This document shows, in pieces, positions 1 to 5,072 of a stretch of 64,000 nucleotides of DNA (position 1 is its first letter; every line of letters starts with the position of its first letter). Source of the stretch: a virus (Duplodnaviria; Caudoviricetes); the IMG/VR virus record IMGVR_UViG_2622736592_000004, positions 32,001-96,000 of that record, one strand, 5' to 3'. The notes beneath the pieces are model-generated. The model was not told where the DNA came from. It did not search any database and saw nothing but the letters and a program-made list of their open reading frames with translations. A program made the position numbers and the translations under genes.

Positions 1-2
1 TC

Positions 3-179
3 TCCACCATCCTTGTGGACTGGGGCCTCGACAAGAGGCCGGACAAGCCGGCGTTCTGGGCCATGTTCGCCCTGCCCGCACTGCTGGTGTTCGGGGTCAC
101 CCAGATCCCGGCCGTCGGCGACCAGCTGGGTGACGGCGGGCAGCAGGTCGCCGAGCAGATGAGCAAGGTCGGGAAGTAG
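3..179 (+). CDS. 3' end of membrane protein (partial; transfer region)
   Basis: Open frame ...AFWAMFALPALLVFGVTQ...SKVGK* with hydrophobic stretch; stop 4 nt before next ATG. Confidence 0.6.
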   Translation, partial: STILVDWGLDKRPDKPAFWAMFALPALLVFGVTQIPAVGDQLGDGGQQVAEQMSKVGK

Positions 180-183
180 CCCG

Positions 184-1687: not shown

Positions 1688-4099
1688 ATGCACACCACCG
1701 AGCATCGCCCGGCGAGCCTGCCGAACCGGGCGGACCCGTCCGGTGACGCTCGGCCCACCCCCGGAGACGACCCTGCCGCCACACGCCGGCAACTCCCACC
1801 CGGTGCGTCCCACTGGTCCCGCACCTACTACGACGACCAAGGCATGCAACAGGTCGCCAAGGTGTCGGTGCCTGTCACCGGACAAGGCCGCATCGCCGCC
1901 AACGAGTGGGAGTGCCCCACCTGCGGCCCTCAGTCCCGCAGGTGGATGAGCGCAACCCTGGCGACCGCCCCGTTCTGCGACCTCCACGACATGGAGATGC
2001 GCAAGCTCAAGCCCGGACGGAACCCGTCAGTAGGGGTGACACCCCCGTGGAAGGACATCGTCCGGGCCGTCGACCACCGCATCCGCGTTGGCGCGGCCAT
2101 CGCCGCCGCAGGCACCGCCGGACTCACTGTGGACGTGGTTGACATGCCGTGGTGGGGGCACGCCGCCCAGATCGCCGCGATCCCCGCCGCGATCAGCGGT
2201 TCGTGGTGGCTGACCCGAGTCTGGCTGATCCGCGAGGCGGTACGCCTCAACAACCTTGACCCCGACGACGAGGTTGCCGGCCGACGGGAACGGCGGAACA
2301 TCGCCAAGAGGGCACGGATCGCCGCCTACTGTGCCGCCGCCGGCATGAGCTGGATTGAGATCGCCGACCTGCTCAACATCGCCTCACACCCGGCCCGTGG
2401 CGTGTCCCTGATCGCTGGTCTCATCGCCGCCGGTGTGATCGCCTCACGCCCCTACCTCAACTGGGTGGACAGGCGTCGCCGGGCCAAGCCGACCCCCGCC
2501 GTCGCTGCGGCGACAGCGATGCCTGACGAGCCGCCGGCTGAGACTCCCACCGACGACGAGCAGCTCGCCGCCTACGTCACCGGACGGTGGAACGAACGCA
2601 TCTCCGCAGAGCGAGGCCCCCTGCCCGGCACCTACCTGGAGGCCATCCGCCGCACCTACGGCGGCTGGTCCGCTGTGGTCGTCGCCACCGACGAGTCCGA
2701 CCTGGACCCGGAACGCTTCGAAACAGACAAGACCATCGGCAAGATTGCCCGCGCCTACGGGGTGGGCGTGACCATGGTGACGGTCACCGCCGACCCGCTC
2801 GACGCGAACCGGGCAATGATCCTCGTGCAACGCACCTCACCCCTGTCCGAGGCCCGAGCGTGGGACGGCACCGGCATCGACCTGACCACCGGAAAGGCGT
2901 ACACCGCCTCCGTGGACGACGGCGACCGGGCGCAACACCCGTTCTGGCGTCCCGGCTGGGGTGCCGTCATGGAACTACTCGCCGGAGCAACCGGATCCGG
3001 CAAATCCGAGTACCTGAACCTGCTGCTCGCGTTGGAGCGGCAGTCAGGGGTGTGCGTGTCGTGGGTGTGCGACCCGCAGATGGGCCAGTCGCTGGGTGAC
3101 ATCCGCGACGGCGTCGACTGGTTCGCGCCCACCGTCGAAGAGTTCCTCATCATGCTGCGGGTGGCAGTGCAGGTGATGCTCGCCCGCAACGTGCTGATCA
3201 CCCGCATGAGGGTGAAGGAGACCCGCCCCAGCGGTGAAGTGGTGGAACGCCGCGTCAAGTACGTGGAGGTTTCCGCCGACTTCCCGCTGCTCGACATCAC
3301 CTGCGATGAGGCGCACATCCCCATGAACGACCCCGACCACGGCAAGGAGATCGTCGCCCTGCTGGCGTTGCTGGCCAAGTCGGGCCGCAAGTGCAACATC
3401 AAGGTGCGTCTGATCACCCAGTCGCCACTGCTGACCGAGCTGAAAAACTCGGTGCTGCGTTCCCAACTGTCGTCCGGTTTCGTGGCCGTGTTCCGAACCG
3501 CCGACAAGCTGACCGGTGCCGCCTGCTGGCCCGGAAAGATGCCCGGCGACCCTGCCCTACTCCCCGCCGAATGGCCGAACGGCAACACCGCCGCCGGAGT
3601 GTGCTACATGTCCGGGCAGAAGCCGCTGAGGCACCGCTCCGACTATGTGGGCGACGTGTACGACCTGATGCACTCCGGGGAGACGAAAGGCTTGGAGCCG
3701 GCTGTCCTCGGCGCGGCCGGTGTGCTGTACGCCGACCGGCACAAGCGGCTCGCCGCGTTCGACGCCATGGACCCCGCCGAGCTACTCGGCACGCAGATCC
3801 CCACCCTCGACCGGCCGGCAGGACAGGGTGACCCGGCGGGAGGGAAAGGCGGCGGCCGGGAGGCGGTGCTGGAGTTCTTCGCCGACCGGTGGAACAGCGG
3901 CGACGTCGACCCAATCAAGTTCGGGGTCATCGACGAGAACGTGAAGGCCGTCAAGACCCGGGCGTTGACGAACGTTCTCAACAAGCTGGTGCAGGAGCAG
4001 GTATTGGCGAACGAGACGGGACCGGACGGCAAGAGCGGCTGGTACCGGCTCACGGAGTCGGGTGCCGAGCACCTGGGCGTCGATGAGGTTGGCCTGTGA
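1688..4099 (+). CDS. traB: TraB-like FtsK/SpoIIIE conjugative dsDNA translocase
   Basis: TM segments, Walker A GATGSGKS, Walker B CDEAH, KSGRKCNI..LITQ motif, C-terminal winged helix; GGAG before ATG 1688. Confidence 0.85.
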   Translation: MHTTEHRPASLPNRADPSGDARPTPGDDPAATRRQLPPGASHWSRTYYDDQGMQQVAKVSVPVTGQGRIAANEWECPTCGPQSRRWMSATLATAPFCDLHDMEMRKLKPGRNPSVGVTPPWKDIVRAVDHRIRVGAAIAAAGTAGLTVDVVDMPWWGHAAQIAAIPAAISGSWWLTRVWLIREAVRLNNLDPDDEVAGRRERRNIAKRARIAAYCAAAGMSWIEIADLLNIASHPARGVSLIAGLIAAGVIASRPYLNWVDRRRRAKPTPAVAAATAMPDEPPAETPTDDEQLAAYVTGRWNERISAERGPLPGTYLEAIRRTYGGWSAVVVATDESDLDPERFETDKTIGKIARAYGVGVTMVTVTADPLDANRAMILVQRTSPLSEARAWDGTGIDLTTGKAYTASVDDGDRAQHPFWRPGWGAVMELLAGATGSGKSEYLNLLLALERQSGVCVSWVCDPQMGQSLGDIRDGVDWFAPTVEEFLIMLRVAVQVMLARNVLITRMRVKETRPSGEVVERRVKYVEVSADFPLLDITCDEAHIPMNDPDHGKEIVALLALLAKSGRKCNIKVRLITQSPLLTELKNSVLRSQLSSGFVAVFRTADKLTGAACWPGKMPGDPALLPAEWPNGNTAAGVCYMSGQKPLRHRSDYVGDVYDLMHSGETKGLEPAVLGAAGVLYADRHKRLAAFDAMDPAELLGTQIPTLDRPAGQGDPAGGKGGGREAVLEFFADRWNSGDVDPIKFGVIDENVKAVKTRALTNVLNKLVQEQVLANETGPDGKSGWYRLTESGAEHLGVDEVGL

Positions 4100-4830
4100 C
4101 CGTACGCCCGACCACGTCCGCACCCCGGCGGCAGGCACGACCAGACGTGCGCCGCCGGGGCGCGGTGTACGGCATCCCCACCCTCGCCGTGGACGCCCTC
4201 GGCAAACCCATCCCCGGCACCGTCGTCGTCGGCTACATCGGCCAAACCCGGCAGACCGTCAAACAACGCGAAGGCCAACACCGCGTGTCACAGCCGTTCG
4301 GTGACCTCATCGTCGGCGGCTCGTGGGTCATCGAGGAAGGGTTCTGGACGGACGCCGAACTGGACGCGAAAGAGCAGCACTACATCCGTGGCGGGGCGGT
4401 GCTGGTGCCCGGCCAAGCACCGCAGCGGCCCGTCTACAACATCGACCACAATCGGGAAAACCCGAATCGGATCCCGCCGTGGGATGCGCTGGCGCACCGG
4501 CAGGCACGAGAGCCGGGCTGGCAGCCGCCGCCGAAGGGCGCACGGATCCCCACCCAGCGGGGTGCGGCGTCCACGGTCCGGCCGCGCCCGGTGTCGCCGC
4601 TGTCCCGCTGGTGGGGTCGCCGCCGCTGGCAGGTGGTGTTGTGGGCAGCCGTGTGGGCGCTGCTGTTCGCGGGCTCGTGGTGGGTTGGTGCTGACACGTG
4701 GTCCGGGTGGGCGGAGCCCCGCAACGCGGCAGTCGCCGCCACCGTGGCCACCGCCGGCATCGGGTGGCGAGGTTGGAAGACGTCCGGGCCGAAGCGCCGC
4801 CGGTCGAAGCGTCGGGGGCGACGCCGGTGA
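4096..4830 (+). CDS. GIY-YIG nuclease domain with C-terminal TM helices
   Basis: VYG...GYIGQT..R..QH...E..YI...PVYN; hydrophobic C-terminus; GTGA overlap with traB stop. Confidence 0.7.
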   Translation: MTVRPTTSAPRRQARPDVRRRGAVYGIPTLAVDALGKPIPGTVVVGYIGQTRQTVKQREGQHRVSQPFGDLIVGGSWVIEEGFWTDAELDAKEQHYIRGGAVLVPGQAPQRPVYNIDHNRENPNRIPPWDALAHRQAREPGWQPPPKGARIPTQRGAASTVRPRPVSPLSRWWGRRRWQVVLWAAVWALLFAGSWWVGADTWSGWAEPRNAAVAATVATAGIGWRGWKTSGPKRRRSKRRGRRR

Positions 4831-5072
4831 AATGGTGCTGGGAGGCATACGACCGGGCCGGGGTCCGCCGCATCGCAGACACCCTCACCGACCCGTGGGC
4901 CGACACACCGGAAGGGGCCGCCGAACTAGGCATGGCACACCTGATGGTGAAGGTCCGGCCCAAGTTTCGGCGGCTACGCGGGTGGCGTGTGCGGGCATGG
5001 GATGACCTGGTGGGGGAGGCGTGGGTGGACGCCGACGAGTGGCTGCACGCCCGCGCCGCAGCAGACCGGTAG
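4827..5072 (+). CDS. Hypothetical Trp-rich protein
   Basis: GTGA overlap with previous gene; ends just before hairpin. Confidence 0.55.
   Translation: MKWCWEAYDRAGVRRIADTLTDPWADTPEGAAELGMAHLMVKVRPKFRRLRGWRVRAWDDLVGEAWVDADEWLHARAAADR

Follow-up and report, generated by a model that had tools for sequence, protein, structure and literature searches.

A predicted TraB-type DNA transfer module in a tRNA-integrated tailed phage of a Micromonospora-like bacterium

The transfer module and the adjacent phage genes

The stretch studied here (64,000 nucleotides, hereafter the window) belongs to a prophage of a Micromonospora-like bacterium, recorded in IMG/VR as IMGVR_UViG_2622736592_000004. It corresponds to C12:32012-96011 of the host genome assembly, in which the other contigs that bear on the element are C5, C11 and C13. 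The left end of the window holds traB, the gene of a predicted TraB-type translocase of double-stranded DNA (dsDNA), which is set in an operon with membrane proteins and followed by the genes of a tailed phage (Table 1). An earlier note, made from the sequence alone, had taken the whole for a complete-looking tailed phage that carries an actinomycete conjugation operon and spreads by both means. We called the genes of the window from the GC content of third codon positions (GC3). The traB gene starts with the ATG at 1688, within an open reading frame (ORF) whose longest version begins at 1550.

The sequence motifs, the profile comparison and the structure model agree on an FtsK-like ATPase with transmembrane segments and a C-terminal winged helix, as the earlier note had described it. 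Across 30 TraB homologues there is no variation in the residues of Walker A (GATGSGKS) and Walker B (DE), and the profile of the TraB family matched FtsK motor domains when compared with the PDB (2iuu, E 3e-11). The AlphaFold model of the 803-aa protein has a mean pLDDT of 82. A structure search with this model, using Foldseek, retrieved the FtsK motor in complex with dsDNA (6t8o, E 1e-13) and also TcpA, the coupling protein of pCW3. Four long, partly hydrophobic helices span residues 121-265 of the model, and one of them passes the hydropathy threshold. The winged helix lies at residues 723-796 (helix-helix-helix-strand-strand), and the profile matches to winged-helix domains are weak. Proteins encoded on 93 plasmids of Streptomyces, Kitasatospora and Micromonospora are 33-35% identical to the motor domain.

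The membrane proteins said to flank the ATPase are also there, with a single-pass helix near the N-terminus of the upstream product and near the C-terminus of the downstream one. The upstream 466-aa protein has no family in Pfam, PHROGs, NCBIfam or PADLOC; its homologues adjoin traB in another genome (G214) and in the IMG/VR loci L047-L049, L053 and L057. No family matches the downstream 244-aa protein either. Its homologues are found 3' of traB in G281 (56-60% identity), G234, G284, G269 and many IMG/VR loci, and the motif recognised by eye at its N-terminus reads GYIGQT...R...E. The tra operon begins to the left of the window, where a gene for a 553-aa membrane protein diverges from that of a GntR/UTRA regulator. 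It comprises the genes of this membrane protein, several small proteins, the 466-aa protein, TraB and the 244-aa protein. The same layout of regulator, operon and TraB is found on a Kitasatospora linear plasmid and on the Streptomyces plasmid pSLE1.

The siphovirus cluster occupies 14.8-40.0 kb of the window on the minus strand and extends, according to PHROGs matches, from the terminase large subunit (TerL) to the minor tail genes. The claim of a full, linked morphogenesis set was borne out (TerL, portal, protease, capsid, connector, tail and tape measure), and so was the statement that no host genes separate traB from the tail genes: the interval at 4.8-14.3 kb contains no housekeeping genes, and holds HTH regulators and small unmatched ORFs alone. 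The phage part might still be defective, so that the element would in effect be a large integrative conjugative element with phage-derived genes. The TnpB insertion in the early region speaks for this, but the large morphogenesis ORFs are all intact and keep 50-75% identity in relatives, and we hold this possibility to be very improbable.

Limits of the element and its integration site

The element extends beyond both ends of the window. Small-gene DNA runs from C12:1 to ~111 kb. The only tyrosine integrase on C12 (C12:109135-110484) lies beside the right copy of the attachment (att) core, a 43-bp copy of the 3' end of tRNA-Arg(CCU) (C12:110632-110674), and host genes (TylF methyltransferase, Na/H exchanger) begin past 112 kb. 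The other copy is on C5 (C5:2321-2363), and the same 43 bp also occur within the intact tRNA-Arg(CCU) (C5:17204-17278). The left end of C12 (C12:1-349) is the reverse complement of C5:1-349, and 309 bp are also identical to the start of C13. This contig forms, with C11, a second, unrelated siphovirus prophage of ~56 kb in tRNA-His (C11:3657-20754 and C13:1-39097): the integrase on C11 adjoins a 24-bp copy of the tRNA-His 3' end, whose partner is the tRNA-His at C13:39074. Because C11 and C13 make up this separate prophage, we joined C12 to C5. The element comprises C5:2320 to 1 and C12:1 to 110631, i.e., ~112.6 kb. The two prophages have in common a near-identical 110-aa gene, and this repeat breaks the assembly at C12:1.

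No att-core copy was found inside the element. No serine recombinase was found on C12, and the four RepSA genes detected in the genome (C5, C16, C28 and C47) are all on other contigs. A search for att-like direct repeats on either side of the tra module gave only matches of 18-23 bp. These fall at gene junctions, within blocks whose synteny extends to G281, and we rejected them as boundaries. We also searched for att sites between 5 and 13 kb, which would separate an independent actinomycete integrative and conjugative element (AICE) from the prophage, and found none. An independent AICE does exist in tandem at the same tRNA-Arg(CCU) (C5:2321-17278, 15 kb). It is of the pSAM2 type, with genes for Int, RepSA (E 2e-95), a 478-aa FtsK-family Tra and a GntR/UTRA regulator, but it lies at the far end of the element, between the latter and the intact tRNA, ~36 kb from the phage traB. 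Extension of the contig, as proposed in the earlier note, yielded the ends (43-bp att copies) and the integrase, and no par genes. There is strong support for traB and the morphogenesis genes being parts of one att-delimited element with a single integrase.

Two further observations concern integration. The 74 bp past the right att core (C12:110675-110748) are 94% identical to C5:17131-17203, which is just downstream of the intact tRNA and inside the AICE arm; they are either host flank captured by the AICE or the remnant of a related element behind the phage. Past the window end (C12:99188-100369, window 67177-68358), the element encodes a recombination directionality factor of the Gp3-like type (PF18897, E 1e-39). 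Such factors are known from serine-integrase phages, e.g., phiC31, whereas the sole recombinase of this element is a tyrosine integrase.

Linkage of traB to phage genes in relatives

Homologues of TraB were found in 8 of the 300 other Micromonosporaceae genomes sampled (the unpublished genome G213 is left out of all claims). Full-length homologues across this family are 43-80% identical to TraB, the closest ones 75-80%, and this degree of conservation indicates that selection retains the gene. Metagenome contigs of 109 kb and 119 kb came up in the same search. In five genomes (G214, G281, G234, G269 and G284), the traB homologue has the same order relative to the homologues of the tape measure, portal, capsid, terminase and early genes. 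One of them, a 10-contig assembly, includes a contig of 126.8 kb (G281:C5) that is colinear with the element from end to end, including traB as well as the portal and capsid genes. The ends of this contig repeat exactly over ~11.1-11.9 kb, which gives a unit of 114,874 bp. No tyrosine integrase was found on it, and searches for ParA/ParB and RepSA were empty. By its structure, G281:C5 is a replicon of its own: either it is circular, and the repeat is an overlap of the assembly, or it is a linear phage genome with long direct terminal repeats. Another of the genomes (G284) is a finished chromosome, in which a 119.5-kb island between 52-bp repeats of tRNA-Arg(TCT) holds an integrase, traB and tail genes. 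The TraB homologue of this island (G284:C1:1194797-1198258, L034-L035) was called as an open frame of 1153 aa. The genome search reports one TGA in its first matched piece (1194710-1196077) and places the two pieces ~1.1 kb apart, which suggests that this homologue is disrupted or is interrupted by inserted sequence, perhaps an intein.

The viral contigs of IMG/VR give a similar picture. Relatives of TraB were found on 34 of them, and at least 19 of these encode homologues of phage structural or lysis genes at most 10 kb away. In L060, L068 and L071, we verified that terminase and portal genes come 4-6 kb past traB; in L053, L057 and L070, the verified genes are those of a minor tail protein or a tape measure. 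Homologues of the distal tail genes adjoin the TraB module in L053 and L055-L057. The relatives were found with an alignment as query alone, a scan of IMG/VR with the single TraB sequence having given no match. There was likewise no match in 50,697 phage records, either for TraB (tblastn) or for positions 1-13000 of the window (megablast). The search for homologous phages with the same linkage, which the earlier note had recommended, was thus successful in both the genomes and the viral contigs. Judged by gene order, the association of traB with these phages is conserved and recurrent, and not a chance juxtaposition.

These relatives bear on the possibility that the locus consists of two neighbouring independent elements, one plasmid- or AICE-like (C12:1-45 kb) and the other a prophage of ~65 kb, with a decayed att site between them. 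Tandem arrays do occur at this tRNA, as the pSAM2-type AICE next door demonstrates. The ORFs in the left 27 kb of C12 have no family matches (Pfam gave none for 20 ORFs of the left arm), and with a capsid protein of 311 aa, a prophage of 113 kb would be a large one. Yet neither an internal att-core copy nor a second recombinase nor RepSA was found, and the full gene order recurs both in the terminally redundant contig (114.9 kb) and in the att-bounded island (119.5 kb) described above. Moreover, the module is also present in smaller IMG/VR phages, of 53-82 kb, where 3-9 kb separate it from tail genes. A pair of elements is therefore a very improbable account of the locus.

Among the other genes of the window (Table 1), the portal has its nearest known phage relatives in Arthrobacter phages (~40% identity). 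Between the protease-like parts of the protease ORF lies a segment of ~180 aa with matches to 'RNA ligase' PHROGs (phrog_2659, E 2e-30). A 208-aa protein is encoded at 8995-9621; its C-terminal 100 aa match the PADLOC entry 'Unk_01, sometimes fused to CARF' (E 2e-16) and also two PHROGs without an assigned function.

Table 1. Features of the transfer module and of the phage genes in the window (window positions, unless preceded by the contig name).
Feature	Position	Strand	Evidence or remark
GntR/UTRA (Kor-like) regulator	C12:27774-28547	-	just upstream of the window; divergent from the tra operon
466-aa protein: N-terminal membrane helix, CxxC pairs, C-terminal helical region	184..1584	+	directly upstream of traB
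Predicted TraB-type FtsK-fold dsDNA translocase, 803 aa	1688..4099	+	N-terminal beta domain, membrane-type helices, motor domain, C-terminal winged helix
244-aa protein: C-terminal membrane helix, GIY-YIG-like N-terminal motif by eye	4096..4830	+	start overlaps traB stop
HTH_17 (MerR/excisionase-type) DNA-binding protein	5946..6377	+	32 bits, above cut-off
XRE-HTH and NsdA-like TPR regulator	6435..7634	-	family searches
Peptidoglycan-binding domain and collagen repeats (lysin or tail-fibre type)	14776..15720	-	family match
Distal tail genes, including minor tail protein (18191-19279)	15743..20276	-	phrog_538, E 1.5e-43
Tape measure protein, 1409 aa	20367..24596	-	PHROGs
Major tail protein	25668..26138	-	PHROGs
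Head-tail connector and major capsid protein	31686..33134	-	phrog_1650, E 1e-75
Head maturation protease ORF, 828 aa	33637..36123	-	PHROGs
Portal protein	36273..38330	-	PHROGs
Terminase large subunit	38347..40032	-	phrog_38, E 1e-96
DnaB-type replicative helicase	49981..51351	-	Pfam; early region
ResIII/SNF2-type helicase with HA domains	54487..57420	-	Pfam
DNA polymerase III beta clamp	58756..59895	-	Pfam
TnpB (IS605 OrfB/Cas12f-like), intact	61103..62260	-	Pfam; inserted in early region

Known systems and the possible role of the module

The Streptomyces plasmid-phage pZL12/phiZL12 (Zhong et al. 2010, J Bacteriol 192:3747, as presented in PMC3583192 and PMC4487206) requires for its conjugal transfer, according to one of these citing papers (PMC3583192), the major tra gene and two of its neighbours. 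The element resembles pZL12 and its relative pSLE1 (NZ_LN831788.1) in that a tailed-phage genome is combined with a GntR regulator and a divergent operon that ends in an FtsK-like Tra/TraB of ~775-800 aa. In pSLE1, which encodes a GntR regulator, the gene of the 774-aa Tra is directly before the terminase gene, whereas in this element tra is beyond the tail/lysis end. Furthermore, pZL12 and pSLE1 are plasmids of 86-90 kb with ParAB, whereas this element has 112.6 kb, is integrated in a tRNA by a tyrosine integrase, and ParAB was not found in it. With the portal as query, no record resembling pSLE1 came up among plasmids, and the tally of phage organisms contained none from Streptomyces. We therefore place the element, from these comparisons of genes and sequences, outside the pZL12/pSLE1 group, in a different phage lineage and with a different TraB subfamily. 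The GntR-tra region of pSLE1 has an annotated GIY-YIG nuclease nearby, whose similarity to the 244-aa protein is not detectable.

The pSAM2-type AICEs share with the element the integration at the 3' end of a tRNA, an FtsK-family Tra and a GntR regulator. They differ from it in size (9-24 kb), in having RepSA, RepAM or Prim-Pol, and in their lack of virion genes. With 112.6 kb, a full morphogenesis set and no RepSA found, the element falls outside the AICEs. The third comparison is with the TraB/clt/Spd system of pSVH1, pIJ101 and pSG5 (Reuther et al. 2006 and Thoma and Muth 2012, as cited in PMC12282955). Like the module described here, this system has an FtsK-fold ATPase that is associated with the membrane and ends in a C-terminal winged helix. 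It also has a regulator of the GntR type, small membrane proteins in the operon and, nearby, arrays of 8-bp repeats.

The repeat array of this element is formed by the word CCGTCACC, of which there are 17 same-strand copies in C12:29411-30600, where ~0.3 would be expected. The array is 1.4-2.6 kb before the window start and 3-4 kb upstream of traB. The copies often form CGTCAC..GTGACG palindromes, and the array runs, in differing reading frames, through the codons for the linker of the 553-aa protein and on into the ORFs that follow. Relatives have arrays of different words at the equivalent place. The word co-varies with the C-terminal domain of the 553-aa protein, which is 77-79% identical wherever the word is identical, and one locus (L061) shares with the 553-aa protein only this domain, yet has the same word. 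We considered the array as the clt of TraB, but this covariation points to the domain of the 553-aa protein. It may nevertheless be a clt-like docking site, and its partner, if so, would probably be the 553-aa membrane protein.

Several results count against attributing a plasmid-type transfer function to the module. TraB scores under the cut-offs of two curated families, FtsK_SpoIIIE of Pfam (PF01580; 18.9 vs 24 bits) and plasmid_TraB of NCBIfam (NF041214; 33 vs 800 bits). Its likeness to plasmid proteins is confined to the motor domain, at no more than 35% identity, and the Tra of pSLE1 is 22% identical to it over 345 aa. Recognisable Spd proteins were not found, nor were ParA/ParB families in the element (C12:1-111 kb), and a TnpB gene lies inside the early region of the prophage. 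The array word, when followed across loci, tracks the domain of the 553-aa protein and not the winged helix of TraB; CCGTCACC is the sole strong array, and no recognition repeat that tracks the winged helix was found. Since the scores are below the curated cut-offs, the 803-aa protein is best regarded as a distant TraB-type translocase, and not as an orthologue of the TraB of pSVH1 or pIJ101. The identity proposed in the earlier note stands as far as the FtsK fold, the membrane association, the winged helix and the GntR layout are concerned, and falls short in the scores of the curated families.

A protein this distant from the characterised TraBs, whose fold belongs to the FtsK/HerA ATPases with their many roles, could have been recruited for superinfection exclusion, for handling host DNA, or for helping the genome to enter or exit, with no genome movement between cells. 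The lack of TraB-linked recognition repeats among our findings would fit such a recruitment. On the other hand, the layout of the operon, with its GntR regulator and membrane partners, is that of plasmid transfer regions, and PADLOC matched no defence-system family to the TraB module. We regard a recruitment of this kind as very improbable.

The module could also serve the phage genome within one mycelium, spreading or segregating it across septa and into compartments and spores, and not between strains. The fold of TraB is that of FtsK and SpoIIIE. In Streptomyces plasmids, intramycelial spread belongs to the same tra/spd system. For the extrachromosomal G281:C5, which lacks recognisable ParAB, a further means of segregation would be of use. 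However, a single pump does both jobs in the characterised plasmids, and the element described here is integrated and therefore needs no segregation aid during lysogeny. It is unlikely, in our view, that the module is restricted to this function.

We consider it probable that the prophage carries a dsDNA transfer module of the actinomycete plasmid type as a conserved part of its own, which would give it a capsid-independent route beside lytic spread. Transfer would start with relief of the GntR/UTRA regulator and with the element excised or extrachromosomal, as in G281. The membrane proteins would tether the phage DNA, and TraB would assemble, as a hexamer, at the membrane and pump the phage genome, as dsDNA, into the hypha or compartment next to it. 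The outcome would be a capsid-independent route added to lytic spread, as reported for the plasmid-phage pZL12. Spread both as virions and by conjugation is plausible for this element. More tentatively, although it is quite possible, the element may represent a lineage, widespread in Micromonosporaceae, of tailed phages of 105-120 kb that integrate, or in some cases stay extrachromosomal, and are self-transmissible both as virions and through TraB-type conjugation.

Spread as a phage and conjugation usually count as exclusive modes for mobile elements, and according to a 2025 review on plasmid mobility, no conjugative phage-plasmid or prophage is known. Spread of this prophage through its TraB module would run counter to this statement. 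The only precedent from the laboratory, which has gone largely unnoticed, is the plasmid pZL12. The kind of element is known from it; what is new here is a chromosomally integrating prophage of 113 kb, from another phage lineage and with another TraB subfamily, and with relatives in several genera and in collections of viral contigs. If the pump works, such phages would move without lysis or receptors, and models of host range, host cost and capsid-size limits would change. The element would then also be a tractable system for the trade-off between the two routes.

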